A DNA stretch of 64,000 nucleotides from Escherichia coli. GTDB taxonomy: Bacteria; Pseudomonadota; Gammaproteobacteria; Enterobacterales; Enterobacteriaceae. The notes under the pieces were generated by a model. The model worked only from the letters and a program-made list of their open reading frames with translations, was not told the origin of the DNA and made no database searches. Where the stretch lies: the NCBI RefSeq assembly GCF_030384885.1, contig NZ_CP128613.1, one strand, 5' to 3'. The translations under genes were made by a program, and so were the position numbers. The first letter of the stretch is position 1, and every line of letters starts with the position of its first letter. This document shows positions 15,576 to 34,720 of this stretch, in pieces.

Positions 15576-17567
15576 TTACTCAAGCAAGGTTAATAATTGT
15601 TCGCAAAGCAAAACGCAGTTATTCATTGCTTCTCCCCGTGCCTCGCCTTCTGTATTACGAAATTGTCCCAACACATGTGCCAGCCGATAAAAACCCATCG
15701 CGGTGAGTTCATTGACCAGCAACTCTGACTGACTAATGGCACTCTGTTCCTGATAGCGCCAGCCATTATGGAGCAGTTGAATAAGCAACGCCTGACAGCG
15801 CATCAGTAACTGATGAGTGGTAGACGGTACAGGCAGAACGCTGGTAGAAGGTAGCGGTGCCACAGGCGAAGTTTCTGCGTCCAGTGCCCAGGCGCGGGTT
15901 TGCGTCATCATTACTCGTGGTTCCAGTGTCAATTGCCCCTCAGCAAAATTGATAAACCCAGAAACCAGACTAACGGGATCTTCTGTTTGTTGTAACAGAG
16001 CTGCCATGCGTTCAACAGCAAAGGGCGCACTGGCTGAAGCTGGCAGTGATAACGTCAGCACATTATCGTCACCTTCGCCACTGATTACCTGCGCATCCAG
16101 TGTCTGCCGACTGCTGTCCCAACCGAGTGAAATGCACTCTTCTACTGGCAGAATAAATAAGTTATCGACCTGGTTAAGCGGTCGTATGGCGGCTGGCGGA
16201 CGTTGGCGTAAATATTCCCGCAAAGCCACAATGCCCGGCTGGCGCAGTGGTGCGCTCAACATTTGCCAGGCATCAGGCGACAGCGGAACAACACTGCTTA
16301 AGCGGTTGCGGGTAGCTAACAGCAACTCGCCATCGGCACTGCGTTTTGCTGCTTGTGAAACAATTTGCCCACCCGCCAGCGCGCCAGCCTGAAAACTAAA
16401 CAGCCGCCGTTTTGCCGCTGGAGAGTTATCCTGTTCACTTCTCGGCCAACTGCGCGAAAGATGCAAAATACTGCCGGTGTCGGGATCGGTGAACCAGATG
16501 CGTAAACCATACCGCTCATTATCCTGCCAGCAACGCATACCTAGTGACACCAGCCGCAAATGATCAAGCTTTGCTTCGCCAGCAATGCCTGCGCCGACGA
16601 GCGTGCGCCACGGTATGGGCGGTACCTCACCGACACTGTCACGTCGCGCCATCTCTTGTGCACTGTTCAAGCGACTGGTTAACGCCGCAATCTGGCACAA
16701 GCATTTTCCGGCATGATAGTGGCTGGCGCGGGCGTGGAAGGCATCAACGCTTGCCCGTAGCTGTCGTAGTGATTCACTTACCCAACGCCAGTTGCAGCGT
16801 TCCGCCGCTTGCTGCGCGCGGCTGAAAGCGGCCTCGTAGTGGATTGGCGGTTGGCTGATCCCGCCCAGCCATAATGCCTGACTTAATTGCTGAACATATT
16901 GACGACATGCTTTACCTTCGTCGCTGGAAAACGGATCGTCAGATGATGTGACGTGTTCACTGTGCATCTGCCAGATCAAATGAGTAAATTCCGCTTGTTG
17001 ATTTTTGGCCTCGACGAAGGCCTGCACAGCCAGTGCTACGTGTTCACACAGCGTTCCTTCAATACAATCACAACGGGCGAAACGAATGCTGCTGCGGGAA
17101 TAAAAACGCACATCGCTCATCGGTAAGCGGGCAGAGGGAATTTCGCCCGGTGTGCAGAACAACTCAATGGTGATGCCTTTAGCGACCAGCGCCTGCGCGC
17201 GTTTACGCGTGGTATTGGGCAGGGTAGCCAGTTCTTCCTGCCAGATTGCCGGATCCCACTCTTCTTCTTTTTCCGTAGGCTGGGCGGTGGCACAAAGTCG
17301 TTGATAACTTAACACCAGCATCACGCGATGACGGCACATGCCGCTGGCCCCGCAGCTACATTGAGCCTCTTTCAGTGCCTGACTGTTCGCCAGCCGGGTA
17401 CGGACACCGTCACTGAAGGTGGCGATTAAAGCGCCGTTCTCATGGCAGATTTCCGGGACATTGCCATTTTCCAGTTCCTTAAGGCTGCGCTTCACAAAAC
17501 CAGCATTGCTTAACGCCGTCAGGGCCTGCGGTGTCAGTTCTAATAATTCCGGACGTAGTGAATTCAT
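15576..17567 (-). CDS. yehQ: SWIM zinc-finger protein YehQ
   Basis: ORF 15576-17672(-); start chosen at 17567 where ATG overlaps yehP stop (ATGA); two CxC...CxH SWIM-like motifs (CSCGASGMCRH, CDCIEGTLCEH). Confidence 0.85.
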   Translation of the reverse strand: MNSLRPELLELTPQALTALSNAGFVKRSLKELENGNVPEICHENGALIATFSDGVRTRLANSQALKEAQCSCGASGMCRHRVMLVLSYQRLCATAQPTEKEEEWDPAIWQEELATLPNTTRKRAQALVAKGITIELFCTPGEIPSARLPMSDVRFYSRSSIRFARCDCIEGTLCEHVALAVQAFVEAKNQQAEFTHLIWQMHSEHVTSSDDPFSSDEGKACRQYVQQLSQALWLGGISQPPIHYEAAFSRAQQAAERCNWRWVSESLRQLRASVDAFHARASHYHAGKCLCQIAALTSRLNSAQEMARRDSVGEVPPIPWRTLVGAGIAGEAKLDHLRLVSLGMRCWQDNERYGLRIWFTDPDTGSILHLSRSWPRSEQDNSPAAKRRLFSFQAGALAGGQIVSQAAKRSADGELLLATRNRLSSVVPLSPDAWQMLSAPLRQPGIVALREYLRQRPPAAIRPLNQVDNLFILPVEECISLGWDSSRQTLDAQVISGEGDDNVLTLSLPASASAPFAVERMAALLQQTEDPVSLVSGFINFAEGQLTLEPRVMMTQTRAWALDAETSPVAPLPSTSVLPVPSTTHQLLMRCQALLIQLLHNGWRYQEQSAISQSELLVNELTAMGFYRLAHVLGQFRNTEGEARGEAMNNCVLLCEQLLTLLE

Positions 17568-18700
17568 GACTGAAGATTCTCCGCAAGCCAGGTAGCCAGT
17601 TCGCCCGGTGTCATGGCAGCTATTTGTGCGCCGACATTTACCAGCGCCTGGGCTGTATCGCGGTCGTAGCAAGGTGTTGCGGTGCTATCGAGCGCTGCCA
17701 GTCCCAGCACTTTGATGCCGCTCTGGACACACTTTTTCACCTGATGCGTCAGCAAAGATGATGAACCCCCTTCATAAAAATCGCTCACGAGTATGATGAC
17801 GCTTTTCGCTGGTTGTTCAATAAGTTGCCGACCATATTCCACGGCACTGGCGATATTGGTCCCGCCGCCCAATTGTACTTTCATTAATAACTCTACCGGA
17901 TCGGCAACGTCGGCAGTGAGATCGACGACGTTAGTGTCAAAAGCGACCAGATGGGTACGAATGCCGGGTAACTGCCATAAACAGGCCGCCATCACCGCTG
18001 AGTGGATCACCGAGTCAACCATCGATCCGCTTTGATCAACCAGTAACACCAGCTGCCATTGTTCGCTATGGCGCTTAATGCGACTGTTAAAGCGGGGGGA
18101 TTCGATATACAACTTGCCGTGTTGCGGGTGCCAGTGTTGCAGGTTGGCGCGCAGAGTACTTTTGAAATCGAAATTACGCGCCAGTGGAATAAATGAGCGG
18201 CGACGGCGATCGCGGACACCAGAAAAAGCCTGACGAACTTCCTTTGCCAGTCGCGCCATAATTTCTTCAACAACCTGGCGCACTATCCGGCGGGCGGCAG
18301 CCAGCACTTCGGGATTCATCAGATGTTTGGTGTGCAAAACGGCGCGTAACAGGCTTTCAGAGGGCTGCATACGTTCCAGCACGTCGAGATTTGTCACTAC
18401 ATCTTCAATGCCATAGCGCAGTACAGCATCGCTTTCCAGCCGCTCAATCACCTGTTGCGGAAACAGCGTGTGAATACTGTTGATCCAATCAGGGGTGGTG
18501 AGATTTGAGCCACCTAATCCACCGGAGCGTTCACCACGCTGGAGCCGTTCAGGATCGCGCCCGTACAGCCACTCCAGCGCGTGGTCCATCCGCCGGGCGT
18601 TGTCATCCAGCCCACAAAGCGTCGTTTCTGCCGCTTCGCCAAGAATTAATCGCCAGCGTTGTAGCTCACGAGTGGTCAGAAGATCGTTCAGTTCAGACAT
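17564..18700 (-). CDS. yehP: von Willebrand factor A domain protein YehP
   Basis: 378 aa beginning MSELNDLLTTRELQRW; MIDAS motif LVLLVDQSGSM; start overlaps yehM stop. Confidence 0.9.
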   Translation of the reverse strand: MSELNDLLTTRELQRWRLILGEAAETTLCGLDDNARRMDHALEWLYGRDPERLQRGERSGGLGGSNLTTPDWINSIHTLFPQQVIERLESDAVLRYGIEDVVTNLDVLERMQPSESLLRAVLHTKHLMNPEVLAAARRIVRQVVEEIMARLAKEVRQAFSGVRDRRRRSFIPLARNFDFKSTLRANLQHWHPQHGKLYIESPRFNSRIKRHSEQWQLVLLVDQSGSMVDSVIHSAVMAACLWQLPGIRTHLVAFDTNVVDLTADVADPVELLMKVQLGGGTNIASAVEYGRQLIEQPAKSVIILVSDFYEGGSSSLLTHQVKKCVQSGIKVLGLAALDSTATPCYDRDTAQALVNVGAQIAAMTPGELATWLAENLQS

Positions 18701-20972
18701 GGAAAACTCCCCAGTGTTGCAGTGATGCCAGTGCCTGCTGTTCGAGCTGTTGATGATGTGCAATGGCTTGCGGTGGGCAATGCAACGGCATTTGCAGCGC
18801 CGAAACGGGAAGCTGAGCGAGCTGGTAATGCTCAAGCACCTGATGCGCCAGCGTCCCGCGTTCTCGTGGCGGTAGCCAGGCCATCGCCGCGCGTAAATCG
18901 GGCAGGGCGTTAATAAAATCGGCGTCACTCAGTTGATTCAAATGGCTGCTGAAACCGGCGATAAATGCAGGCTGACTGGCCAGTTGATGGCGGGCTAATG
19001 CCAGCAAACCGTGCAGCGCCTCGCCAGATTGTGCCGGGGATAATTGTGCCAGCATCGTCAGCGCCGCTTCGGCACTGGCGTTGGGATGTTCCAGACGCAT
19101 CAGCGCGCCAAGGGCCGCACCGCGATCCAGCGCTGGGGCATGAATCGCCTGACTGCGACGTTCCAGTAAGGCTACCGCCGCAGAAAGCGAAACGCCGGGT
19201 AAATTAACGCCGCTATTTAGATCGCGCAGGATATGGCAAAGCGCCTGCCAGCTATGCAGGTGAGCGTGAAACTCCTTCTCATCCGGCCTGCCGTTGGATT
19301 CACATAGCCACAGTGTGCGATCGATAGCCGCGTATAACGTCGTCTGTAATATCTGCGCGCCTTGCATACCGCTGATTTCATCGAGCTGCCACAAGGCGTA
19401 AAGCACTTCCAGCGCCTGGCCCATTTCGGCAAACTGATTTTCCTGGGCGATTAATAATGTGAGTTGTTCCAGTAATTGCTGACTGAAGGACGCCAGACCC
19501 GCTAACGCTGCCTGGCTAAGACATGTGGTGATGCCGCTGATTCCACCCGCGTCCAGCATATCGGCTTCTAATTTATTGCGTGCGGCCTCCTGGAGTGTGG
19601 CACCAAAGCAGGCGGCTTCAATCAATGCCGCATGTTGGCTAAGTGGCTGGGTTAATGTCCAGCGTTCTTCACCGTTGCCCGCCAGCGTCAGTGTACTTCC
19701 TTGCTCGCGCACAATGCCGGGAATCTCCAGTATTGCCAACCGATGTAGCACCTGACTTTGCGCCAGTCCATCGGGGGTAAAGCGATTTAAGGTAAGCTCC
19801 GCCGGAAGAGAGATTCCGGTACGTTCCAGTTCGCAGGTGACATCTTTTGGCAGAGGTGGCTGTGGCGTCGAGGGGGCAAGTTTACCGAATCCGTCACCTG
19901 CTAATGTGTCTATCAACGTTACCAGTATCGGATCGGTATCGGGATGAATAACGCCGCGATAGCTCCACGGCAACGGCGCATTCAAGGCTTCTTTAATCAG
20001 CGAGCCTGCTATGGCATCCAGCCAGTCAGCGCGTAACGGTAGTGTATGACCGCGCAGCTGTGCCAGCGCCATCGCATGTAGATGAGCGGCAGCCATATCC
20101 GCGGTTGAAGCAGGCAAGTGGTGCTGGCGCAAACGGGTAAGAACCGTTTTTAGTAGTTGTTCACCTGCCTGCTGCAAACCTGACTGCCAGCACCAGTTTT
20201 GCCAGACCGGGGCTGGCATTCCTGAAAGGTATCCTGCCAGCACATCAAGGCGCTTTTCACTGTATGGCGTGAGATAGCAACCTGTAACGGCATCATCCTG
20301 TGAGAGCAATTCTGGCTTGTTAATTTCTTGCGGGCATTCGCGCCACATTTTTGCAAGTGCCGGAGCGTGCCAGCCTCCGCAGACGACTAATACGTCGCCA
20401 TTATTTTGCTGCATCGCCCATGCAATCCAGCGGGCCATAAAGGCTTCGCGCTGACGATTGAGTGCATCGCCGGAGGCGTCGCCCCGCAGTTGTGCAAAAT
20501 AGTGCGCCAGTGCAGAGGGTAATATAGTTTGCTGGCTTTCATCTTCGAACAAGTGATCCCACAAGGTGTCGCTGTTATCCATGCGGGTGGCACGCAGCAG
20601 CAAGGCCTGGCTTTCCTCTTGCATATCAGGCGAATCATCCTCTTCTTCACTTTGTGCCCAGCAAGGCAAATCGATGAAGTAAGTTTGTGCCTGAATACGA
20701 CGTGCGGCTTGTAGCGCCTGCCACTCCGGCGAAAATTCAGCAAATGGCGTCCAGGCACCACGCCCAGGGGCCGCACCGTCCTGATACTGGCAATAACTGT
20801 AAATAGCTACCGGAAGCTGGTGGGCTAACAACAGTTCGTCTACCCGGTCATTAAAATCAGCAGGGCCTTCAATCAATACGTATCGTGGCCGCTGTCTTTC
20901 GATTAACGATTTCACCAGCCTGGCACAGGCTGGGCTATGATGCCGGATGCCGACAATTAACGGCTCGCTCAT
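18693..20972 (-). CDS. yehM: Uncharacterised protein YehM (759 aa)
   Basis: ORF 18693-21113(-); start at 20972 gives 759 aa beginning MSEPLIVGIRHHSPACARL; start overlaps yehL stop. Confidence 0.88.
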   Translation of the reverse strand: MSEPLIVGIRHHSPACARLVKSLIERQRPRYVLIEGPADFNDRVDELLLAHQLPVAIYSYCQYQDGAAPGRGAWTPFAEFSPEWQALQAARRIQAQTYFIDLPCWAQSEEEDDSPDMQEESQALLLRATRMDNSDTLWDHLFEDESQQTILPSALAHYFAQLRGDASGDALNRQREAFMARWIAWAMQQNNGDVLVVCGGWHAPALAKMWRECPQEINKPELLSQDDAVTGCYLTPYSEKRLDVLAGYLSGMPAPVWQNWCWQSGLQQAGEQLLKTVLTRLRQHHLPASTADMAAAHLHAMALAQLRGHTLPLRADWLDAIAGSLIKEALNAPLPWSYRGVIHPDTDPILVTLIDTLAGDGFGKLAPSTPQPPLPKDVTCELERTGISLPAELTLNRFTPDGLAQSQVLHRLAILEIPGIVREQGSTLTLAGNGEERWTLTQPLSQHAALIEAACFGATLQEAARNKLEADMLDAGGISGITTCLSQAALAGLASFSQQLLEQLTLLIAQENQFAEMGQALEVLYALWQLDEISGMQGAQILQTTLYAAIDRTLWLCESNGRPDEKEFHAHLHSWQALCHILRDLNSGVNLPGVSLSAAVALLERRSQAIHAPALDRGAALGALMRLEHPNASAEAALTMLAQLSPAQSGEALHGLLALARHQLASQPAFIAGFSSHLNQLSDADFINALPDLRAAMAWLPPRERGTLAHQVLEHYQLAQLPVSALQMPLHCPPQAIAHHQQLEQQALASLQHWGVFHV

Positions 20973-20982
20973 GCATCTTTCC

Positions 20983-22071
20983 TCACGGCAGGCGGTGGCG
21001 AGCTTGATAATAAGCCTGCCAGTGAGCTTCTTTATGTGTAGCGACACGCTGTTCGAAGTAACGGCGCAGACGTGCGCGATCTTCTTCGTTATCTTTGACG
21101 ATGGTTCCGGCAATACAGTCTACCAGGTCGGCAGGCTCCCCAGCGCGATTCGCTAAAAACCAGGCGCGGAAACCCACGGCGTGTGCTACGTTAACGGCTT
21201 CAGCGGTGGACATAATCGCTGTAAGGGTATCCATTGAGGTTTTCTTTTCGCCGTTGGCACGCAGATCGCGGAAGGTGCGGACCAGTAACTCCAGTACCGC
21301 GTCAGGCACTTTATGCGGAATACCGCTATGGGCCAGCAAACGTGCCGAAGCGCTGGCGACAAGCTCCAGCTCCTGGGCGAAATCCATAATCGGAAAGACA
21401 GTTTCAAAATCGAAGCGACGCTTGAGTGCGGCACTCATTTCATTGACGCCGCGATCGCGGGTATTGGCAGTAGCAATAATATTAAAGCCTTCCCGCGCAT
21501 AGAGCTGACTGGCTTCACCAGTGAGTTCCGGCACCGTCATAACCCTGTCAGAAAGCATACCTAACAGACAGTCTTGTACTTCCAGTGGTGTACGCGTTAT
21601 CTCTTCAAAACGGACAATTTTGCCGTCGCGCATTCCCTGGTAGAGCGGGGCAGGGACCAGCGCTTCCGTTGACGGACCATGGTTGATAAGCAGGGCGTAG
21701 TTCCAGCCGTACTTGATTTGATCTTCGGTGGTAGATGCGCCGCCCTGGATGGTTAACCCGGCATCGCCGCTAATAGCGGTTGCCAGTAATTCAGACAGGA
21801 GCGATTTTGCGGTGCCAGGTTCCCCCACCAACATCAAACCGCGCCCGGTAGCGAGAGTGACTAACATGCGTTCGACAGCGGAGGGGCTAATCACGACTTT
21901 ACGGCTAATATTTTGTGCTTCGTCGCCAAGGATAAAAACACGGGCCGCAGGCAAACTTAACTGCCAACCGGGCGGGCAAGGTGCGTGATCATTTTGTTTT
22001 AATTTTGCCAGTTCATCGGCGTATAACACAGCGGCAGGCGGACGCTGCAGATGATTATTCTGCGGTGACAT
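20983..22071 (-). CDS. yehL: MoxR-type AAA+ ATPase YehL
   Basis: 362 aa beginning MSPQNNHLQRPPAAV; Walker A GEPGTAKS; CbbQ/NorQ-like. Confidence 0.9.
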   Translation of the reverse strand: MSPQNNHLQRPPAAVLYADELAKLKQNDHAPCPPGWQLSLPAARVFILGDEAQNISRKVVISPSAVERMLVTLATGRGLMLVGEPGTAKSLLSELLATAISGDAGLTIQGGASTTEDQIKYGWNYALLINHGPSTEALVPAPLYQGMRDGKIVRFEEITRTPLEVQDCLLGMLSDRVMTVPELTGEASQLYAREGFNIIATANTRDRGVNEMSAALKRRFDFETVFPIMDFAQELELVASASARLLAHSGIPHKVPDAVLELLVRTFRDLRANGEKKTSMDTLTAIMSTAEAVNVAHAVGFRAWFLANRAGEPADLVDCIAGTIVKDNEEDRARLRRYFEQRVATHKEAHWQAYYQARHRLP

Positions 22072-22182
22072 ATATTCATCCCTGAAATGTATTAATGAAA
22101 TAAACGATATTTTACGCGCAATAAATGTTTGGCGCATTAGTTGTTTGAGCGGAAAATATCTGGAAAGCAGATCACAGTAAAT

Positions 22183-22265
22183 AAAAAAACCTGCTGGTGA
22201 GGCAGGTTCTTTTATTTACTACTTTCAGGCCTAACACCACGGCCTGTGCAACATCGTGTTCCAAC
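22183..22265 (-). ncRNA. orzO: OrzO-like type I antitoxin sRNA (boundaries estimated)
   Basis: Minus-strand -35 TTGCAA (22295-22300), 17-nt spacer, -10 TATAAT (rc of 22272-22277); intrinsic terminator at 22182-22214; 5' ~20 nt (rc of 22246-22265) complementary to toxin 5'UTR 22412-22431 with one mismatch. Confidence 0.6.
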
Positions 22266-22271
22266 GAACGA

Positions 22272-22322
22272 ATTATAACCATCGGTGGACCCCGTTGCAA
22301 TTAAGATAATGAGATTTATAAT
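22272..22322. promoter_or_regulatory. Divergent overlapping sigma70 promoters for the antitoxin sRNA (-) and the toxin mRNA (+)
   Basis: Palindromic TTGCAA serves as -35 on both strands; + strand -10 TATAAT at 22317-22322 places the TSS near 22330. Confidence 0.55.
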
Positions 22323-22503
22323 CCTGACTGTTGGGACGTTGCGCCGGATCGAACCCATTTCAAGTCCTGGCTACCGGACGGGTGGTGCCGCAGGTAGTGC
22401 CCTGATCCGGAGTGCAACATCGTGGTCCAACATACGTAAACCAGTATCGACAGGCAGTGTAAGGGTAAGATGCTGGTGTTGCGCTCCTTAATAAGGAGAG
22501 CGG

Positions 22504-22593
22504 ATGGACACGCTGACACAAAAGTTAACCGTGCTCATTGCCGTACTGGAGTTATTAGTGGCTCTGTTACGGCTGATTGATTTGTTGAAGTAA
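22504..22593 (+). CDS. zorO: Type I toxin, ZorO-like 29-aa hydrophobic peptide
   Basis: ATG at 22504 preceded by SD AAGGAG; translates to MDTLTQKLTVLIAVLELLVALLRLIDLLK; ~174-nt 5'UTR; recognised from memory as ZorO/ZorP family (which paralog is uncertain). Confidence 0.75.
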   Translation: MDTLTQKLTVLIAVLELLVALLRLIDLLK

Positions 22594-22616
22594 CGGGCAA
22601 ATTGAAACGCATCTAA

Positions 22617-22641
22617 GGGGGAAAATACCGCTTCCCCCTTT
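22617..22641 (+). terminator. Hairpin terminator downstream of the toxin ORF
   Basis: gggggaa-aataccgc-ttccccc stem-loop followed by a U-rich tract. Confidence 0.5.
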
Positions 22642-22759
22642 AATAAAATGATTATTGCTTCCATTAATTCACCCGATAACTTTTTTCTTATTTATTAATT
22701 CATCGATTTTATAATTAACGTACATTTGACCGGGATGTGAGTATTTATGGTGGCTATTG

Positions 22760-22972
22760 GCGAAAAATATCTGGAAACCAGATCGCGGAAAATAAAAAAA
22801 CCTGCTGGTGAGGCAGGTTCTTTTATTTACTACTTTGACGATAACTTGCTGATTGTGCAACATTTCGTACCAACGAGTAAATTATAACCATATCCACACT
22901 CCATTGCAATTCAGTGAGTGAGATTTATAATCCTGCCCCTTGGGAGGTTGTGCCGGATCGGACCAATTTGAA
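22760..22972. repeat. Copy 2 of the repeat; truncated toxin-antitoxin unit with no toxin ORF
   Basis: Homology to copy 1 ends about 15 nt before the yehK stop codon; terminator and both promoters conserved. Confidence 0.85.
22793..22876 (-). ncRNA. Second Orz-like sRNA gene (OrzP-like), apparently orphan
   Basis: Minus-strand -10 (rc of attata 22882-22887) and -35 ttgcaa 22904-22909; terminator at 22793-22825; 5' pairing region diverged (gtgcaacatttcgtaccaac). Confidence 0.5.
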
Positions 22973-22986
22973 TTATTTAGAGTATA

Positions 22987-23304
22987 TTATTCTATTTCTT
23001 GGTTGAATATGTTCTGTAGTTCACGATTAAAAATGGCTATTACCGTTTCTGGTGATTCACCTCGTAATTTTCGCTCATCAATAAATTCATCTCTTATATA
23101 AATCAACGCATCATTTATTAGCGGGTCGGCATCTTCTCCATCACGTTGATGAAATGTTGGACGTAGCCGGAATCGTTCCTGTCGATAGACGGAACCTGTA
23201 AATAATTCAGAGCATTTATGGATCTCAAGTCTGAAGGAAAACGGATCTTCAGGTACAGGGACTTCATAATCATAAGTAGCGACCAGCTCTTTTTGCACGA
23301 TCAT
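22987..23304 (-). CDS. yehK: Uncharacterised protein YehK (105 aa)
   Basis: 105-aa ORF 60 nt downstream of yehI on the same strand. Confidence 0.8.
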   Translation of the reverse strand: MIVQKELVATYDYEVPVPEDPFSFRLEIHKCSELFTGSVYRQERFRLRPTFHQRDGEDADPLINDALIYIRDEFIDERKLRGESPETVIAIFNRELQNIFNQEIE

Positions 23305-23364
23305 CGCTTTTCCCGGTGGTAAGTCGTGTTGATAACGGGCAGTCGCATCACTGCCCGCTGTGTT

Positions 23365-26300: not shown

Positions 26301-27015
26301 CATTAGCAACAACTTTTAACCACTCCTTAGAATGAAAATGAGTCCGCGGGCATTCAAGGCCTACCAACTCATTGGCGATTTCTGGTTTCTCCGGGAGGAT
26401 GAGTGCAATAAAAGGACGGCGAACTTTGGGTATTCCTGGCAGTGCGGCAATGAGTTTGTCGGCGCAACGCTGCCAGCAGCTTTCCTCTGCCAGAGAGAGA
26501 TGCTTACGCAGTCGGAGATCGAATTCGTTATAGGTTTCTGAGCGATAACCATAACCATCGTCCTCGTTCTGATACTGCAATGTTACTACCAGAGGATCAC
26601 TCTCATAACACCGTACAATAAACTGGCGTGCAATCACCACTTCAGTCGCATATTCCAGTCCCTCTTGTTGGACGATTTCGTCGAGCAACTGTTGGCTATC
26701 ATTTTGCGCGATACAGGCTAGCGCCGCCATTGTCCGGGCCGGAATTGAGGGTTTGTGCTCGCCGATCAAGTTGATGGCTTGCGTAATGGCCGACTGCCAC
26801 TCCAGTGAAAAATTTTCATAACGCCAGACGATGTTTTTTTTCTTCTCAGCAATGTGTAGCAATTTATCACCCAGTGTCTGGATGAGGCTTTCAGTGATAA
26901 CAGGCACCGGTTCGCCCGGCCAATTGCGATGGCTGAGTGGTGTTTTGCCTTTTTTATATTTCAGTTCCAGTTGGGCGTTATCCGCCAGCCACGGTAATTC
27001 CTTGTCCATGCTCAT
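23365..27015 (-). CDS. yehI: Large DUF4132-family protein YehI (MolR paralog lacking the WGR domain)
   Basis: 1216-aa ORF; C-terminal two-thirds alignable with both MolR-like genes (GAPAKDNWAF...FGPRQFTV...YEIMPPFRQL); begins at the position homologous to just after their WGR domain. Confidence 0.88.
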   Translation of the reverse strand: MSMDKELPWLADNAQLELKYKKGKTPLSHRNWPGEPVPVITESLIQTLGDKLLHIAEKKKNIVWRYENFSLEWQSAITQAINLIGEHKPSIPARTMAALACIAQNDSQQLLDEIVQQEGLEYATEVVIARQFIVRCYESDPLVVTLQYQNEDDGYGYRSETYNEFDLRLRKHLSLAEESCWQRCADKLIAALPGIPKVRRPFIALILPEKPEIANELVGLECPRTHFHSKEWLKVVANDPRAVKKLERYWSQDIFSDREASYMSHENHFGYAACAALLREQGLAAIPHLAMYAHKEDCGSLLVQINHPQIIRILLLVADKNKPSLQRVAKYSKNFPHATLAALAELLALKAPPTRPGYPIIEDKKLPAQQKARDEYWRTLLQTLMASQPQLAEEVIPWLSTQARAVVNSYLSASPKPVIDSTDNSSLPEILVSPPWRGRKKTSITHFSLPELTLVPQAYRSPNKHWTPEQQTAIDHFSAMSFDERLVSRGADTFLRELGFEDHRWKFNEFILTGQLDALDTDQLETHTSLGRLLNYQAKQTENKHYREEAASALLAQDSVALMEGWRTFQRKFNYTDEKRWGVWNLYLIAQMPREMAVSCWQQIVAADFHYTGVEYLLSVLGTDALPGLITAFARHPKEIFPLLIHFGATELALPVARVWHRFAGQRNLARQWILQWPEHTATALIPLIFARSGDNSEAALSALRLLYEQGHGELLQTVANRWQRTDVWPALDQLLKQSPIEIYPTRIPKAPDFWHPTMWSRPRLITNNQPVTDDALEIIGEMLRFTQGGRFYCGLEQLKTFCQPQTLAAFAWDLFTAWQQAGAPAKDNWAFLALSLFGDESTARDLTTQILAWPQEGKSARAVSGLNILTLMNNDMALIQLHHISQRAKSRPLRDNAAEFLQVVAENRGLSQEELADRLVPTLGLDDPQALIFDFGPRQFTVRFDENLNPVIFDQQNVRQKSVPRLRADDDQLKAPEALARLKGLKKDATQVSKNLLPRLETALRTTRRWSLADFHSLFVNHPFTRLVTQRLIWAVYPANEPRRLLNAFRVAAEREFCNAQDEPIDLPADALIGIAHPLEMTAEMRSEFAQVFADYEIMPPFRQLMRRTVLLTPDESASNSLTRWEGKSATVGQLMGMRYKGWESGFEDACVYDLGEYRLVLKFSPGFNHYSADSKALMSFRSLRVYRDNKSVTFAELDTFDLSEALSAPDVIFH

Positions 27016-27018
27016 TCC

Positions 27019-30000
27019 TTATTCAAACAGGGCTTCGATGTCGTTAATTAACTCGCTAGCGGTGATGTCATCGAGTGCGGAGAACAGCGCTTCCTGTGTT
27101 GAATTAATCCCCCAGCCATAGCTTTCTGCTTTGCCTTCCCATAGCCACAGCTTGCTTAAGAGTTGCTCGGCACTGAGTTCGGCTGGCGACATACCAACTG
27201 CAAATCCTTCATCGATTTCCATGATTAATGACCAGCGGCCCAGAGGTTTGATCATCCAGCCGATCCAGCCACCGTCCTGCGGTTCACCACGCACCCAGCC
27301 TTTATTCGACAGCCCCATAACCCGACCGCTCGGGCATTTTCTGCCTGCCCAGCGGGTTAGTTCGCTGGTGTTTCGTTCGACTTCAGTCAGGGCATAACTG
27401 TTGCGGTCGAGCTGGCGGAACGGCGGTAACAGCTCGTAGTCGGCAAAAAGCTGACCAAAGGCGGCGGCATCCGTCGGTGATATTTCCAGAACGTGAGGAA
27501 TACCTATAGAGATATCGCCTTCCGGCAGGGTGAAAAGATCATCGTCAGCGGTGCTGTAGCTGTTATCTTCCGCCACACGGAAGCACGCCAGTAACTGGTT
27601 GTCTGCGCTATAAATGCCCCAAATCAGACGGCGGGTTAAGTGGCAGACCAGCGGATTCTCAACCAGAAAGAGCTGAAAGTTTTCTGGCGACCAGCGGCGG
27701 CGCAGGCACATGGCGGATTCCAGCCTTGCCACCTGCTGGGCGGCAACGGTACGCGCATCTTTTTTCAGCAGTTTGTAGCGGTTAACTGCATCGTTCGCTT
27801 GGGTTTCATCATCGCTTTTGTTCGGTTTAGGCAAGTCTTTCAGGCGGCTGCCGGAAGCATCACGCACAAACGGTTTTAAGGTTTCATCAAAGCTGACGGT
27901 GAACTGCCGTGGCCCGAAATCCAGCAGCAGCGAACCGTTATCATCCAGACCGAGATCGGGCGCTAAGCGATCTTCAAGTTCTGCCACTGTGAGTTCGCGG
28001 CTTTCGGCAATGTCGGCAATTTTTTCTTTTGCCCGCTCCTGTAATGCTTTGAATTTCAGTTTCTGGGCGATGCCGTTAAGCTGCATCAGGGCGATATCAC
28101 TACCGATAGCAGCGAGAATATCCAGCCCGACGGTGGCGCGTTTATGCTGGGATTCACCAGGCCAGGCGCGGATTAATGGCGTCAGTTTGCGGGCGGTGTC
28201 ATCGTTGCCAAGAACACCTAATGCAGTGAACGCCCAGCTCTCTTTCGACGGCGCGCCAGCGGTCTCCCAGGCGGTAAACAGATCCCAGGCAAACTCAGCC
28301 AGTGAGTCGGCAGTACAGGCGTCTTTCACCTGTAATAACCCCGCATACAGCGTATCTTCCTGAGGGAAGCGGAGCATTTCACCGAGGTGGAAGAGGGCGC
28401 TATCTGGCAGTGATTGGGCGTTTGCTTTTAATACCGGGCGTGTCCAGAGCGATGGCTGATAAAAGGCCGGAAGTGTCGGGATTTTAGTCGGGTGATTATC
28501 TAAGGGATCGAGCGCAAGTAGAGCGTTCACCGCATCGGTTACTTCCGGCTGGTTATAACGCTGGGCGATTTCTTGCAGTAATGACGGATAACCACTTTCA
28601 ATCAACATACGTAAGGCGGCGCGGGCGTTATCCTGGGCTTCACCAGCTTTGCCGAGTGCCGCAGGCAACAGGCCGATAATGGCATGTTCCGGATATTTCA
28701 GCAGCCAGGTGCGGGCGTCTTGTCGTAGAGTTTTGAGTTTGTTAAAGGCGCGGGCGACGGCAGGAGCCAGCTCACTCGCTGCGAAGTAATTCGTTATGGG
28801 CAAGGCTTCCTGTGGATAGCGTGCAAGTGAGTTTACTAACCCAGGTAATCCTTTGAGTCCAAAATGTAACATGGCGTATTCGGTATCGGTATGCGGAGAT
28901 ACAGTAAGGGCATTCCATGCTCTTATTGCTTTCTCCAGCGGCAATGTTGTCAAAATCCCCAAATGCCAATAATGCCCGGTAGGTGAATGAAACACCTTAA
29001 ATTCACTTATTAAGGTTGAATAATCTTCATTTAGCCATGCCTCAACTACCGCTTCGGGAGCTTTAATATATGTACCAGCGATCCGTCGTTGAAAACCCAT
29101 CCTTGCCAACAGATTGGCAGTACTTTCTTCATGACTAACCGTGATGTGTTTTGAATACCAGATATATTTCGCCAAAAGTTGATTACTGATTTCTTCTGTC
29201 AGATAACTGATTGGCTCAATGCCTAATGGTGCTAAATCAAGCACCGGAATCGACGATTTTTTCTTTTTCGAAAGCCATGGTGGGGAGACTACTATGGCCG
29301 GCAGTAGATCGGTGCTGGCATGGTTTGAGGGCTGTGTCAGTTGTTGCTGGCATGATTTCAGCACTGCAGCTGCGGGTGTCGAAAGCCAGGGAATGACCTG
29401 TTCTGCCAGTGCTGGTTGCGAGATAAGCATCGTCATTAGCATAATGCGCCAACTATTCTCTTCTTTTTGCACTAGAAGTTCCGCCAGTGCTGCCAGTGCT
29501 GCGTGTGGGAACGCAGCGCAGGCTTTCGTCATTCGATCGTGACAGCGTTTAGTATGCCCGGCTACACGTATAAGCAGTGTTAATGCGAACGGATGATTGA
29601 TATGACGCAACACATCGGCGCAGTAGTCACTTGCGGCATAGGGAGCAAATCGGGGCAGGGCTGCAACACCTTGCTCCTGTAATACGGTGGCTGACCATAT
29701 CGCACCACAATAGTAATCATCAAAAATGGCATATGGCTCGTGATATTTTTCTAATGAGGCAAGAATGTGCTCATCAGTCGCCACTATTTTTAGCCACTCA
29801 AGCGAGGGTAATTTTTTTTTCCCCAGTAGACGCTGGGCAATTTCATGTGCAATTTCTGGTTTTTCGGGTAATAACAAAGCAATTAATGGTTGCCGCCATT
29901 CTGGAATATGTGGAATTGCGGCAATGAGTTTTTGTGCACATTTTTGCCAGAGAGACTCTTCCGCCAGTGATAAATGTTTCCGTAGGCGTAATTCAAAACT

Positions 30001-30813
30001 GGAATATTGCTGCAAGTTATCAGGTGCAATGCCAGACGGCAGAATAATAATGATATTATTCGCATAATTCCATTCAATATCAATCTGTTGAAGGTGTATT
30101 ATTACATCAGTAGCATATTCCAGACCGCCTTCCTGAATGATCTGATCCATAACATCCTCACGCACTTTATATCTTGTGCATTTCATTTCAAGTGCCGTGA
30201 GTACAGCCATTACTGGTGATGGTAACTGTGTTGTTTTCAGGCAGTCGATCTGACTGATCGCCTGGGCGACGGTGTTTTGCCATACTAAAGAACAGGCGCT
30301 GAAGTCAAATGTGGCTGTTTTATTATCCCGTTGCGACACGCTACAGGCTAAGCGACGTAACTGGGTCAAGTTGTCTGCTTGCTGAACAGGAACTCCGGGA
30401 AAGCGGCGATGGCTTAACGTGGTGTGTACAACTTCGGGCGGAAAAACGACAGCAATATCTTTCGCCAGCCACGGTAAAACATCATCTGTATTTTTGTCAG
30501 CCACACGGGCTTCTGCTACGCAAAAGGGTTGTTCCTGAATAATGGTGGATAAGGCCGCTACCTTGAGAGAATCCGTTACCGTTTGGGAAGGTTGCAAAGA
30601 ATTATCCTTCGCTTGCTCCACATACCCCTTCTTCATCTTCTCCGCAATCAGCCTCAGTTCCGCTTTTTCCGCCGCCGCAGCATCAGCAAAGCTTTTTACC
30701 TGGCTTTGCCCGTTGGTACCAACTTTGCCCCAACTAATATGCAGCTCGTTTCCCTGTTGCTCCACTGCCCAGAATTTATGTGATTTTTCGTCCTGATAAA
30801 TATAGGTTTTCAT
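27019..30813 (-). CDS. molR: MolR-like protein, WGR domain plus DUF4132 (1264 aa), copy A
   Basis: N-terminus MKTYIYQDEKSHKFWAVEQQGNELHISWGKVGTNGQ is a WGR domain; C-terminal DUF4132-like region; 3-nt gap to yehI start; which copy corresponds to K-12 molR is uncertain. Confidence 0.85.
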   Translation of the reverse strand: MKTYIYQDEKSHKFWAVEQQGNELHISWGKVGTNGQSQVKSFADAAAAEKAELRLIAEKMKKGYVEQAKDNSLQPSQTVTDSLKVAALSTIIQEQPFCVAEARVADKNTDDVLPWLAKDIAVVFPPEVVHTTLSHRRFPGVPVQQADNLTQLRRLACSVSQRDNKTATFDFSACSLVWQNTVAQAISQIDCLKTTQLPSPVMAVLTALEMKCTRYKVREDVMDQIIQEGGLEYATDVIIHLQQIDIEWNYANNIIIILPSGIAPDNLQQYSSFELRLRKHLSLAEESLWQKCAQKLIAAIPHIPEWRQPLIALLLPEKPEIAHEIAQRLLGKKKLPSLEWLKIVATDEHILASLEKYHEPYAIFDDYYCGAIWSATVLQEQGVAALPRFAPYAASDYCADVLRHINHPFALTLLIRVAGHTKRCHDRMTKACAAFPHAALAALAELLVQKEENSWRIMLMTMLISQPALAEQVIPWLSTPAAAVLKSCQQQLTQPSNHASTDLLPAIVVSPPWLSKKKKSSIPVLDLAPLGIEPISYLTEEISNQLLAKYIWYSKHITVSHEESTANLLARMGFQRRIAGTYIKAPEAVVEAWLNEDYSTLISEFKVFHSPTGHYWHLGILTTLPLEKAIRAWNALTVSPHTDTEYAMLHFGLKGLPGLVNSLARYPQEALPITNYFAASELAPAVARAFNKLKTLRQDARTWLLKYPEHAIIGLLPAALGKAGEAQDNARAALRMLIESGYPSLLQEIAQRYNQPEVTDAVNALLALDPLDNHPTKIPTLPAFYQPSLWTRPVLKANAQSLPDSALFHLGEMLRFPQEDTLYAGLLQVKDACTADSLAEFAWDLFTAWETAGAPSKESWAFTALGVLGNDDTARKLTPLIRAWPGESQHKRATVGLDILAAIGSDIALMQLNGIAQKLKFKALQERAKEKIADIAESRELTVAELEDRLAPDLGLDDNGSLLLDFGPRQFTVSFDETLKPFVRDASGSRLKDLPKPNKSDDETQANDAVNRYKLLKKDARTVAAQQVARLESAMCLRRRWSPENFQLFLVENPLVCHLTRRLIWGIYSADNQLLACFRVAEDNSYSTADDDLFTLPEGDISIGIPHVLEISPTDAAAFGQLFADYELLPPFRQLDRNSYALTEVERNTSELTRWAGRKCPSGRVMGLSNKGWVRGEPQDGGWIGWMIKPLGRWSLIMEIDEGFAVGMSPAELSAEQLLSKLWLWEGKAESYGWGINSTQEALFSALDDITASELINDIEALFE

Positions 30814-30825
30814 TGCAAAGTCCTT

Positions 30826-33800
30826 TTAATCAAAAAGTGATTCAACATCGTTAATCAACTCGCTGGCGGTGATGTCGTCGAGCATGGAAAAAGTAAGTAA
30901 AGGTTGTTTACCGTAGCGATCATCTGGCGAGGTGATTTTTACGCTTTCAACAGGTAACAGGTCGCCATAACCTGTTTCACCATAAATTAATGAAAAATGT
31001 TCTGTTTCAAGTTCGAGATCGCCATAAGGGGTAGATTTGCGCATCGCATAGACGCTGCCGCTTTCTTCCAGACGTTGCCAGCCTCGGCGCTCTAGCCCGA
31101 CAATACGTCCGGCCTGACAGAGCTGTCCTTGCCAGCGTGTCAGGTCGTGGGTATTCCGTTCATTATCAGCAAGACGATAACTACCACGATCGAGCTGTTG
31201 GAAGGGGGGAAGCAGTTCGTAATCAGCGTAAATTTGCCTGAATGCAGCGGCAGATTCAGGGGGGATTTCCAGCACATGCGGTATACCGATGTTTCCTGCT
31301 GGCAGCGTGAATAACTCATCCTGCGCATCGCTGTAAGTGCTGTCTTCTGCGACCCGGAAGCAGGCAATCAGCGTGTTTTCTTCAGTATATACTCCCCATA
31401 ACAGCCGTCGGGTTAAGTGACGTACCAGCGGATGCTCCACCAGAAACAGGCGGAACTGTTCTGCCGTCCAGCGTCTGCGCTGGCACATAGCCTGCTCCAG
31501 ACGATCAATCTGCTGACTGGCAATGGCGCGCACATCTTTCTTCAATTGTTTGAAGAGGTTAACGGCGTCAGTTGCCAGTGTTTTATCATCGCTCTGATTT
31601 GGTTTGGGTAAATCTTTCAGGACTTTGCCGTTTGCATCGCGCACTACAGGTTTTAAGGTTTCGTCAAAACCAACGGTGAATTGACGTGGGCCGAAATTAA
31701 GTATCAGCGAGCCGTTGATATCAAGCCCTAAATCTGGAGCCAGGCGGTCTTCCAGTTCGGCCATAGTCAGCCCACGGTTTTCAGCAACTATGTTGATTTT
31801 CTCGCGGGCATGTTCCTGTAATACAACGAATTTAATCTTTTTCGCAATGCCATTAAGCAGCATTAGCGCAACATCGCTGCCAATATCAGCTAATACATCC
31901 AACCCGGACACCGCCCGTTTATGCTGTGATTCCCCAGGCCAGGCACTGATAAGCGGGGTTAATTTACGCGCGGTGTCGTCATTGCCTAAAATCCCCAGCG
32001 AAGTAAATGCCCAGTTTTCTTTTGCGGGTGCGCCAGCTTCTGTCCAGGCGGTATACAGATCCCAGCCAAAGTCAGCCAGTGATTCGCGAGTGAAGGTTTC
32101 TTTGATGATCTCCAGCCCAGCGTAGGCGGTAATGTCGCGAGGAAAGCTCAGCATAGTGCCCAGGTGGCGCATAGCGTCATCTGGTAGAGGCAGGTTGTTA
32201 CTTTTAAGCCGTGGTCTGCGCCATAAGGTGAACTGATAAAAGCCGGGCAGTGGGGCGATTTTTGCGGGATATTCTTCCAGAGGATCGCTATCAAATAATG
32301 TTGCCAGCGCAGCTAAAACATCAGGTTGATTATATCCTTGCGCGATTTTCTCAATCGTTTCTCGCTGGTTTAATTTCACTAGCAGGCGGAGCGCCTGGCG
32401 GGCATATTCCCGATTTTGGCACGGTTTGCCCAGTGCCAAAGGCAGTAGCCCGGCGGCGGCATGGCGCGGGTTATTTGCCAGCCAATTAACGGCATCCTTG
32501 TAAGCCATTTTTTTCTGTAACCGCTGCGCCATTGGTAAGGCTAGTTCACTGGCCCCAATAAAGAGGGTGAATATCCACAGTCGTTGATGATCTCGTTGCA
32601 AGCAGGTCATAAACGCAGGAATGGCCGTACTACCAAAAACTGCCAGAATCTCTTTCTCACCTGAATATCGCTCCTCAATGATTATTTGGTTGAGAAATGA
32701 AATCGCCTGTTGTCCCGGTAAGTAACAAAGCGCAGATAAATTCCAGCTTTTGTTGGCATTGTTGTGATATTTCGCAAACTCAGCTTTTAGTGCTGGAAAA
32801 TCAAAGCGCAACAAGGCATCAACAGCGCTTTGCGGTATGTATTTTTTTTCATGTAAGTCATCTTCGCAATGCAGCCATTCATTAAAACCTAATTGCCAAA
32901 GGATTTGTTGTTCTGGTGTAAAAGGAATGAAAGATGTCTCCCAGCTTTCTTTTTCAATTAGTGGTAGGTCGGTAAATAAGGTTTGCTGTGATGCCTGATA
33001 TTTCGCGATTTCACTGAATCTGGATATGTCAGTGTGACTGATTAACTCTGTAATTCCTGGTGTGATATCCGTGACGGCAGGAATGGGAAGCACAGGTAAA
33101 TCAAATACGGGTATTACATTTTTCTTCTTATTTATTATCCACGGTGGAGCGACAAATAGCTGCGGCAACATATCCGCAGTGGCATACTCACATTCTTTAG
33201 CTACTGACTGAGGACGACATTCAGATAAGATGCCTGCCGCTTTAGCATTAACCCAGGGAATGACGTCAGTGACTAACTCTGGCGTGACGGTAATCAGTTT
33301 GACAAGCGCGTTGCGCCACTGTGCATCTTCATGTATTGCCAGCAAAGTAGCATAAGCGGCAATAGCCGCAGCGGGATGTTTTTGGCAGGCTTTGCTTAAG
33401 TATTCCAGGTGCTTTTTCTTGCCATTTACACCGAGGATCAGAATTTGAATCGCATCCGGGTGATTCGTTTTCCATAGCCATTTGACAAGATCTTCAGTCT
33501 CGCTGATGCGCTCGAAGAGATAAGTGGGATTGTCAGAATGCTCTTCCACAAACTCAGTAAGTATCCGGCTTACACCGCGCCCCCCATTATTTGCCAGCAA
33601 CATTGCCAGATAAGCGCGAAAATCACGATACAACGGTGGGAAGTCGTATTTTTCTGCTGTAGTCAGAGCTATATCATCGGTTACTACCAGTCTTAACCAG
33701 GTTATCGCCGGAACGTTTTGGTCTGCATAATGTAGCGCCATAGCATTGGCAATATCCGGGCGTTCAGGGAGCAGTAACGCGGCAAAAGGTTGCCGTGCTG

Positions 33801-34623
33801 GGGATAGCGTCGGAATAGCAGTAAGCACTTTATCCACACAGCGTTGCCACTCATCTTCTGAAGCGAGTGAAAGATGATGACATAGACGTTGATGCCAACT
33901 CGGTAGCGATTCTGCTTCGTGATTAGGTGGAATGATGGTGGTTACTGCGCCTTTTACTGGTTTATATTTGAGTTGAAGAGCGAGAAGGGCGATTTCAACG
34001 GCACTTTCCAGACCACAGCGAATGACTAAGTCATCGACCAGTTCATCTTGAGAGTAAGAGTTCCAAAAGCCCCAGAGCAATGCTGCATCAGATTGCGCAC
34101 TCCCTGTCGGTTGATTACCCTGAACTCGCATTTGTAACTCAGCAAAAGCCTGCTGCCAGTTTTCTGGATAAGAGCGGTAATTATTGTCGGGGTCATATGC
34201 CCTGGTGTTATTCGCGATGCGCTTCCATATTTGACCATCTTTGTGCAGATAATTGATATCTCTGGGGCGAGAGCGATGTGGAAAAGCAAATCGGTTAATA
34301 TCGTCGGTTAGCGGAATGACTGCATCATCAGCCAGCCATGGGCGTTTGTTTTTACTCTCGGGTGAAGTTTCAACGTCAGGAGTGACTTTGGTGACGGGGG
34401 GGATATGCACGTTTGCCGAAGCGTCTTCCACATAGCCTTTTTTCGTTTTCTCAGCGATAAGCTTCAGTTCCGCTTTTTCCGCCGCCGCAGCATCCGCAAA
34501 GCTTTTTATCTGGCTTTGCCCTTGGGTGCCAACTTTTCCCCAACTGATATGCAACTCGTTACCTTGCTGCCCCACCGCCCAGAATTTATGCGATTTTTCG
34601 TCCTGGTAGATATAACTCTTCAT
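30826..34623 (-). CDS. MolR-like protein, WGR domain plus DUF4132 (1265 aa), copy B
   Basis: N-terminus MKSYIYQDEKSHKFWAVGQQGNELHISWGKVGTQGQ; diverged central region; conserved C-terminus; 12-nt gap to copy A. Confidence 0.85.
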   Translation of the reverse strand: MKSYIYQDEKSHKFWAVGQQGNELHISWGKVGTQGQSQIKSFADAAAAEKAELKLIAEKTKKGYVEDASANVHIPPVTKVTPDVETSPESKNKRPWLADDAVIPLTDDINRFAFPHRSRPRDINYLHKDGQIWKRIANNTRAYDPDNNYRSYPENWQQAFAELQMRVQGNQPTGSAQSDAALLWGFWNSYSQDELVDDLVIRCGLESAVEIALLALQLKYKPVKGAVTTIIPPNHEAESLPSWHQRLCHHLSLASEDEWQRCVDKVLTAIPTLSPARQPFAALLLPERPDIANAMALHYADQNVPAITWLRLVVTDDIALTTAEKYDFPPLYRDFRAYLAMLLANNGGRGVSRILTEFVEEHSDNPTYLFERISETEDLVKWLWKTNHPDAIQILILGVNGKKKHLEYLSKACQKHPAAAIAAYATLLAIHEDAQWRNALVKLITVTPELVTDVIPWVNAKAAGILSECRPQSVAKECEYATADMLPQLFVAPPWIINKKKNVIPVFDLPVLPIPAVTDITPGITELISHTDISRFSEIAKYQASQQTLFTDLPLIEKESWETSFIPFTPEQQILWQLGFNEWLHCEDDLHEKKYIPQSAVDALLRFDFPALKAEFAKYHNNANKSWNLSALCYLPGQQAISFLNQIIIEERYSGEKEILAVFGSTAIPAFMTCLQRDHQRLWIFTLFIGASELALPMAQRLQKKMAYKDAVNWLANNPRHAAAGLLPLALGKPCQNREYARQALRLLVKLNQRETIEKIAQGYNQPDVLAALATLFDSDPLEEYPAKIAPLPGFYQFTLWRRPRLKSNNLPLPDDAMRHLGTMLSFPRDITAYAGLEIIKETFTRESLADFGWDLYTAWTEAGAPAKENWAFTSLGILGNDDTARKLTPLISAWPGESQHKRAVSGLDVLADIGSDVALMLLNGIAKKIKFVVLQEHAREKINIVAENRGLTMAELEDRLAPDLGLDINGSLILNFGPRQFTVGFDETLKPVVRDANGKVLKDLPKPNQSDDKTLATDAVNLFKQLKKDVRAIASQQIDRLEQAMCQRRRWTAEQFRLFLVEHPLVRHLTRRLLWGVYTEENTLIACFRVAEDSTYSDAQDELFTLPAGNIGIPHVLEIPPESAAAFRQIYADYELLPPFQQLDRGSYRLADNERNTHDLTRWQGQLCQAGRIVGLERRGWQRLEESGSVYAMRKSTPYGDLELETEHFSLIYGETGYGDLLPVESVKITSPDDRYGKQPLLTFSMLDDITASELINDVESLFD

Positions 34624-34720
34624 CCGCGTTCCCTGTATTTATATCCAGTTATAAGCGGATGCTAGCAGTTAATGAAAAAAATTAAGAGCGTTGAACAAAC
34701 AAGAAAACAACTTTAGGAAT

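Follow-up and report, generated by a model that had tools for sequence, protein, structure and literature searches.

A five-family MoxR/VWA cassette joining yehLMPQ to DUF4132 giants in Escherichia coli, with a predicted TIKI/TraB-type fold in YehM

ATPases of the MoxR type act together with VWA proteins in several described pairs, including RavA-ViaA, CbbQ-CbbO, NorQ-NorD, and CoxD-CoxE. In the characterized MoxR/VWA systems, the metal ion-dependent adhesion site (MIDAS) of the VWA protein captures an acidic residue of the client, and the AAA+ ring remodels that client (PMC7159879, PMC3893208). YehL of Escherichia coli is the type of one of the seven MoxR subfamilies in the classification of Snider and Houry (PMC3893208). 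Here, the locus that encodes YehL was analyzed in a 64,000-nucleotide stretch of the E. coli chromosome (contig NZ_CP128613.1; the whole stretch is referred to as the window), in which the yeh genes are read between metG and yehR. The locus is known already as an uncharacterized one, because YehL names a MoxR subfamily and all of the genes are annotated. The original prediction, made from the letters of the window, grouped yehL, yehM, yehP, and yehQ with yehK and three tandem genes for very large DUF4132 proteins (giants) into one module without an assigned function. The lack of a documented specific function was borne out: none was found in the searchable literature on the gene names, the DUFs, and the domain combinations, and no paper mentioning DUF5682 or describing the whole system was found there. 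What is new here is a cassette of five gene families that includes DUF4132, a predicted TIKI/TraB fold in YehM, the occurrence of natural YehM-YehP fusions, and the architecture of the giants as HEAT-like solenoids with a terminal alpha/beta domain.

How does the yeh locus compare with described systems? Like the MoxR/VWA pairs, it places an AAA_5/MoxR ATPase beside a VWA protein with a complete MIDAS. It differs from those pairs in adding obligatory partners, namely a DUF5682/TIKI-like protein, a SWIM protein, and DUF4132 proteins. Class I chelatases combine a small AAA+ protein, a VWA protein, and a very large partner. The yeh cassette resembles both the class I chelatases and Midasin/Rea1 in having a small AAA+ motor, a VWA/MIDAS module, and a very large partner. 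However, its parts are separate proteins and not one chain as in Midasin, and membership among the chelatases is ruled out because the giants lack a CobN/BchH domain. The MoxR-vWA ternary conflict systems (Kaur et al. 2020, PMC7159879) share with the yeh cassette a MoxR and vWA core, large partners, a patchy phyletic spread, and peptidase-type candidate effectors. The third component of those systems, which is a VMAP, iSTAND, FtsH, or beta-propeller protein, was not found in Pfam scans of the YehL/YehP partners, which returned only DUF5682, SWIM, DUF4132, and WGR. Nor is an effector fused to the vWA C-terminus: YehP ends with its VWA domain, and the only fusions seen are to YehM. The text describing the ternary systems (PMC7159879) does not mention YehL, SWIM, or WGR. 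An NCBIfam scan of the eight proteins of the locus gave only generic AAA, VWA, and WGR matches. The yeh cassette is outside the ternary conflict systems, the chelatases, the CoxDE-type maturation loci, and the systems of PADLOC.

YehM was used as a probe across genomes because DUF5682 is the most specific component of the locus. The probe matched 2266 cluster representatives at E <= 1e-3, and a scan of one genome per species confirmed at least 597 YehM loci. Among the matches listed, these loci occur in Gamma-, Beta-, Alpha-, and Deltaproteobacteria, Myxococcota, Actinomycetota, Planctomycetota, Verrucomicrobia, Cyanobacteria, Leptospira, and Bacillota. Linkage was counted in 80 retained loci from other species, annotated with our own open reading frame (ORF) calls and hidden Markov models. 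All four of yehL-M-P-Q were present in 69 of the 80 loci. DUF4132 genes stood beside them in 70 loci (within 1 kb in 65 and on the same strand in 67), and each of the ten loci without DUF4132 was truncated on one side by the end of its contig. Counting giants of 600 residues or more, 38 loci had one, 23 had two, and 8 had three. When 85 loci were considered, yehP lay within the cassette in 78, and its absences fell at contig ends. Independent look-ups recovered the same cassette in Variovorax, in Serratia, in two metagenomic contigs, and on plasmids of Bacillus mycoides, Iodobacter, and Sinorhizobium. In other words, yehL-M-P-Q and the DUF4132 giants co-occur across phyla in a near-obligate manner, and the proposal that the giants belong with yehLMPQ is strongly supported by the 70 linked loci, the contig ends of the other ten, and the independent look-ups. 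The contrary possibility, that the MoxR/VWA/SWIM genes do not co-occur with DUF4132 genes in other genomes, fails decisively when gene neighborhoods are inspected.

The usual gene order is giants-L-M-P-Q. The giants lie between yehM and yehP in Alphaproteobacteria and in one Hydrogenophaga, and after yehQ in a few loci. The genes on either side of the cassette are not related from one genus to another, and no other family recurs in more than 8 of the 80 flanks, which leaves no candidate for a conserved sixth component. The small protein YehK (105 aa; 22987-23304, minus strand) was counted as part of the module in the original prediction. It falls outside the conserved cassette, as yehK was restricted to E. 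coli among the 85 annotated loci; it had no match in NCBIfam or PADLOC scans. Because the flanks are unrelated, no sixth family is conserved, and yehK is confined to E. coli, the conserved unit is a self-contained cassette of five gene families, found in at least nine phyla. The cassette is horizontally spread. It is mainly chromosomal or carried on megaplasmids, and a few copies reside on smaller mobilizable plasmids. For example, the cassette on the Iodobacter plasmid is flanked by type I restriction-modification genes and insertion sequence (IS) elements, and that of Sinorhizobium is flanked by immunity-like genes (SMI1/KNR4-like). On the Rhodococcus plasmid pUSK13_1 (locus L088, 6848-10485), a DUF4132 gene that is apparently split stands alone, with no yehLMPQ; its neighbors are a GIY-YIG nuclease and the Wadjet system JetABCD.

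A viral origin of the cassette was considered and rejected, since the sole match in a phage collection is to a record that appears to be a bacterial contig wrongly labelled as phage. That record (MT835988.1, 'Bacteriophage sp.'; locus L091) carries yehL-M-P beside RarA and a polysaccharide deacetylase, and a 1207-aa ORF without a family match lies further downstream. PHROGs v4 also contains small families near-identical to the eight proteins (for example, phrog_29006, 31592, 30700, and 20839). These families most likely come from mis-delimited prophage regions and are not evidence of viral origin.

YehL and YehP form the core of the cassette. YehL (20983-22071, minus strand) matches AAA_5 (2.6e-34) and, marginally, bpMoxR (0.0024). 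Its best sequence relatives in the PDB are the AAA domains of Midasin (7e-10), and its relatives in family scans are of the GvpN and CbbQ types. The Walker A motif (residues 83-90, window 21802-21825), a VRFEEITR Walker-B-like motif, the sensor asparagine N203, and the paired arginines R218/R219 are each kept in at least 79 of 81 homologues. Judged from these motifs, YehL is an intact MoxR AAA+ ATPase. YehP (17564-18700, minus strand, 378 aa) matches VWA_CoxE over the full length of the model (2.2e-71). Its VWA domain spans residues 151-372, where the protein ends, and contains a complete MIDAS (D222-x-S224-x-S226, T281, and D307) whose residues are kept in 71-72 of 76 homologues. The motifs on which the original prediction relied (GEPGTAKS in YehL, DQSGSM in YehP, and two CxC..CxH in YehQ) are all found in the translations, and its description of yehLMPQ as one module with a MoxR and VWA core stands. 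Natural fusions of YehM to YehP occur in at least four representative clusters (P0170, P0202, P0232, and P0266), which argues that the two proteins work in contact.

The composition of this core has also to be weighed as that of a maturation or cofactor-insertion chaperone of the CoxD/CoxE (Mo-Cu), NorQ/NorD, CbbQ/CbbO, CobNST, or BchHID type, in which the giant would be the substrate-binding subunit or the client. The 'molybdate utilisation' label of molR would then mirror a true metal link. Such a chaperone agrees with YehP being a full-length VWA_CoxE member, with YehL falling in AAA_5 among GvpN- and CbbQ-type relatives, and with a small AAA+ protein, a VWA protein, and a partner of ~1,250 aa mirroring the class I chelatases. 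YehL and YehP are moreover conserved like housekeeping proteins, and the flanks are mostly ordinary genes. However, although the VWA_CoxE and MoxR pairing of the CoxD/CoxE type is present, the annotated flanks show no genes of a matured enzyme (e.g., coxMSL), and no cox, nor, cbb, cob/bch, or molybdoenzyme genes recur beside the cassette in the 80 loci. The giants have a HEAT-like solenoid only, and neither a CobN/BchH nor another enzyme fold. The molybdate label goes back to a genetic study of 1990, and molR is a pseudogene in K-12. Molybdenum genes of Deinococcus do not respond together with its DUF4132 gene, and control by LexA, DdrO, and H-NS, described below, fits stress or xenogeneic genes better. 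A maturation role is unlikely.

YehM (18693-20972, minus strand) matches DUF5682 in Pfam (1.1e-97) and was listed as unknown in the original prediction. Structure and conservation change this view. The N-terminal domain (approximately residues 1-265, window 20178-20972) is modelled as a hydrolase-like fold of the TIKI/TraB/ChaN type, and it shows the alpha/beta architecture with a parallel beta-sheet core that characterizes this fold. The C-terminal two-thirds (~500 residues) form a HEAT-type solenoid. The fold relatives, with their values, were a TraB family protein (11.1), HopBA1 (9.5), ChaN (9.3), EreA-like 'succinoglycan biosynthesis' proteins (9.0 and 7.6), EreC (7.2), and RRSP (7.2). Marginal Pfam matches (1e-3 to 3e-3) to Cofac_haem_bdg (Tiki superfamily) or TraB_PrgY_gumN appeared in 3 of 14 diverse YehM homologues. 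YehM differs from the TIKI, TraB, PrgY, ChaN, erythromycin-esterase, and RRSP proteins in that its sequence similarity to them is at noise level. Its domain also differs from the TIKI/TraB superfamily in being fused to a solenoid of ~500 residues inside a MoxR/VWA system.

Is YehM an enzyme? Active TIKI enzymes carry a set of two His and two Glu residues together with a basic residue, a set that is missing from inactive members, for example PMT (PMC6254334). Across 24 YehM sequences, down to 28% identity, residues R10, H11, H12, E35, H51, E83, D101, R175, E176, and H202 are invariant, and several of them sit at strand ends, as expected. By their invariance and strand positions, H11/H12, E35, R175, E176, and H202 are candidates for the 2His/2Glu set and its basic residue. 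Catalysis is proposed because of the fold and the invariant His, Glu, and Arg residues. On this model and alignment, YehM is probably an active hydrolase, likely a peptidase.

The three giants are encoded in tandem. Copy 1 (23365-27009, minus strand, 1214 aa) is the YehI orthologue and lacks WGR. Copy 2 (27019-30813, minus strand, 1264 aa) carries WGR and is the intact orthologue of the K-12 pseudogene molR. Copy 3 (30826-34623, minus strand, 1265 aa, from the ORF and the RefSeq annotation) also carries WGR and is the first gene after the promoter. By ORFs and annotation, the giants, yehK, and yehLMPQ all lie on the minus strand at the positions originally given, and the predicted tandem paralogy and the presence of WGR in two giants were confirmed. 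In alignments, the giants are true paralogues, the two outer copies being 47% and 39% identical to the middle one. In copy 2, WGR covers approximately residues 1-78 and Pfam DUF4132 covers residues 988-1173 (window 27295-27852). The WGR N-terminus of a paralogue matched PDB entry 2ra8 in a PDB sequence search, which found nothing useful for the body of the giants, and a Foldseek search of AFDB50 with a giant gave no match outside its own family. In architecture, the giants are HEAT-like solenoids that end in an alpha/beta domain without a close solved match.

The giants also vary among strains and species. Copy 3 is absent from K-12, and only part of it aligns with K-12 molR, at 70% identity. 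Within the gene of copy 1, nucleotides 1745-2329 (window ~24681-25265, ~585 nt) have no nucleotide match in K-12 yehI, and the sequence on both sides of this central segment is ~92.5% identical to yehI. From this comparison, the center of copy 1 looks like a mosaic or hypervariable segment. Of 40 aligned giants, 30 carry WGR and ten lack it; WGR is the only DNA-binding domain that recurs among them. In the giant of Leptospira noguchii (locus L073, 3177-8030), leucine-rich repeats replace part of the solenoid and are an alternative sensor-like module.

The remaining member of the cassette, YehQ (15576-17567, minus strand), was described as having two SWIM motifs. Both are present in the translation, but Pfam support is weak (0.0036 and 0.24), and only the first (C70-x-C72...C78-x-H80) is conserved across 74 homologues. 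Conservation is limited to the N-terminal ~90 residues, and the C-terminal ~570 residues vary. A PDB sequence search with YehQ found nothing useful.

One could suppose that the giants are plain WGR transcription factors, that yehLMPQ is an unrelated or accessory chaperone, and that the TIKI-like domain of YehM is a non-catalytic ligand-binding module. WGR has been named as the domain by which 'MolR-like TFs' bind DNA (PMC7824862), and UniProt names include 'MolR family transcriptional regulator'. Non-enzymatic TIKI-fold proteins exist, and lone DUF4132 genes occur in Rhodococcus and reportedly in Deinococcus. A solenoid of 1,250 aa is nevertheless atypical of transcription factors, and ten of the aligned giants are without WGR, with no other recurring domain for DNA binding. 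The near-obligate synteny, which extends to giants placed between yehM and yehP, points to a joint function, and the invariant His, Glu, and Arg residues of YehM argue for catalysis. It is therefore very unlikely that the giants are transcription factors and nothing else.

Evidence on regulation comes from the sequence upstream of the giants and from published work. A LexA (SOS) box-like site of the form CTG-N10-CAG, CTGGATATAAATACAG (34633-34648, minus strand), lies just upstream of the ATG of the first giant and aligns with AACTGGATAAAATTACAGGG upstream of molR in K-12. The box is thus present here, and LexA-dependent regulation is known from the literature, in which molR is among the LexA-regulated genes with a known SOS box (PMC6590174). 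The promoter before the first giant is controlled by LexA and by BglJ-RcsB, the latter being an activator (PMC6590174, PMC3950696). H-NS silences yehLM in K-12: it binds an intergenic region near the two genes, whose expression increases in hns/stpA mutants (PMC3686432). The intergenic region between yehK and yehL (22072-22986, 915 bp) should carry the yehL promoter. Because the first giant has its own promoter and a separate H-NS-bound region precedes yehL, the E. coli locus probably consists of at least two transcription units, and a single operon is not supported. The start and stop codons of yehL-M-P-Q, originally described as overlapping throughout, do overlap between yehM and yehP (8 nt) and between yehP and yehQ (4 nt), but yehL and yehM are 10 nt apart. 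In Deinococcus radiodurans, mitomycin C acts through DdrO/IrrE to induce DRA0166, which is a DUF4132 protein, and DR2173, which is a WGR protein (PMC8533742). That two unrelated DNA-damage regulons control DUF4132/WGR domains is suggestive.

What the cassette is composed of is secure; what it does, we infer. We propose an ATP-driven MoxR/VWA remodelling machine, possibly proteolytic, that would serve the response to damaged or foreign DNA and not metabolism. This proposal is tentative, with a probability of roughly 0.4. Its mechanism is drawn from CbbQ/CbbO, NorQ/NorD, Rea1, and CobS/CobT-CobN. By analogy, the YehL ring and YehP, a MIDAS adaptor bound to YehM as a scaffold, would grip and remodel the DUF4132 giants with ATP. 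The giants would be large HEAT-like sensors or clients, mostly equipped with a DNA-binding WGR. Their remodelling would gate the YehM hydrolase (probably a peptidase), which would then cleave the giant or a protein bound to it. The SWIM finger of YehQ may tether the assembly to DNA or to a partner, and in E. coli the SOS response would switch the giants on. A role in genome stress or conflict is favored because of the control by LexA, DdrO, and H-NS together with the WGR and SWIM domains, and because of the horizontal spread, the paralogue expansion, and the mosaic center of the giants. It is also favored because the locus decays often in E. coli lineages and because some cassettes are plasmid-borne near restriction-modification, immunity-like, or Wadjet genes. 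If the link to DNA damage or foreign DNA is true, the cassette would add a new branch to MoxR/VWA biology, whose known cases so far lie mainly in enzyme maturation.

A more specific form of this proposal is a DNA-associated extraction and proteolysis machine that would be the bacterial functional counterpart of Cdc48/p97 with SPRTN. In it, the SOS-induced WGR giants and the SWIM protein would recognize DNA lesions, DNA ends, or DNA-trapped proteins of host or invader, the MoxR/VWA motor would pull on these, and the TIKI-type peptidase of YehM would cut them. This form is quite unlikely; if true, it would mean a new DNA-damage or surveillance pathway in E. coli and hundreds of species.

Several observations weigh against the remodelling machine acting on damaged or foreign DNA. 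The roles of client, adaptor, and protease are all analogies. YehM gave no significant sequence-profile match to the TIKI families, and a profile search of the PDB found nothing relevant. When its N-terminal domain was aligned with hhalign to the TraB-family protein YbaP of E. coli, only the GGxH segment aligned, and not significantly. The TIKI-fold family includes the non-enzymes ChaN and PMT (PMC6254334). WGR could not be detected in about a third of the systems, and no SOS-type box (gamma/beta, alpha, or Cheo-box) stood above background upstream of the cassette in other taxa. The linkage has one clean exception, a metagenomic contig that carries yehLMPQ (locus L095, 8306-14586) between flanks of 8.3 kb and 7 kb and has no DUF4132 gene. 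Arms-race proteins are usually far less conserved than YehL and YehP. Apart from those of Iodobacter and Sinorhizobium, the inspected annotated flanks hold ordinary metabolic, regulatory, and transport genes. The region was matched in 5425 of 5426 E. coli genomes, which sets it apart from the accessory genes typical of defence. In PADLOC-DB v2.0.0, 0 families matched any of the 8 proteins at E <= 0.01.

The last of these points bear equally on an anti-phage or anti-plasmid immunity system, in which the giants would be diversifying sensors of invaders, MoxR/VWA a licensing switch, and YehM an abortive-infection effector. MoxR-vWA cores have been predicted to be switches of conflict systems (PMC7159879), and several traits of the locus are those expected of immunity, namely a patchy and horizontally transferred distribution with some plasmid-borne cassettes, tandem giant paralogues, a mosaic center, a variable YehQ C-terminus, and decay or disruption in K-12, S. 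sonnei, and ST131. Neighbors that point the same way (type I restriction-modification, SMI1/KNR4-like genes, Wadjet by a lone DUF4132, and zor-orz) are anecdotal. Against immunity, none of the eight proteins matches PADLOC, no recognized toxic effector domain is present, most inspected annotated contexts are not defence islands, and the locus is near-universal in E. coli. An immunity system is unlikely, and the defence role that the original prediction had offered as speculative is still speculative, given the lack of PADLOC matches and the mostly ordinary neighborhoods.

With the linkage, eight orphan annotations become one system open to testing, and the TIKI/TraB fold in DUF5682 provides a concrete catalytic hypothesis for YehM. 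Although molR has stood in SOS regulon lists since 2000, no role has been assigned to it. The K-12 locus is degraded: molR carries a frameshift, an internal stop codon interrupts yehQ, and there is no copy 3. K-12 has so far been uninformative because molR and yehQ are pseudogenes there, and for the same reason K-12 is a natural mutant of the system. The locus is pseudogenized or disrupted in S. sonnei and ST131 as well. Of 5426 complete E. coli genomes, 491 covered at least 80% of a query containing all three giant copies. The window matches E. coli 2013C-4282 at 100% identity, and this stretch is ~93% identical to K-12-like genomes. Window positions 12000-38000, which include metG, apbC, and btsR, are 94-98% identical to K-12 at the nucleotide level, and several of the encoded proteins are identical. 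By this comparison, 94-98% seems low for E. coli core genes, and the region may come from a diverged lineage. The most diverged gene relative to K-12 is yehQ (89%), and its neighbors are at 93-98%.

The gap between yehK and yehL contains an inserted zorO-orzO type I toxin-antitoxin module (window 22149-22972); in K-12, this gap is only 306 bp. Rfam matches place OrzO-P RNAs at 22183-22258 and 22794-22867 (both minus strand), and a ZorO-like ORF lies at 22504-22593 (plus strand). A direct duplication of ~610 bp within the module has produced a second antitoxin-like RNA without a toxin ORF. A paper on Shigella sonnei likewise placed zorO beside yehL.

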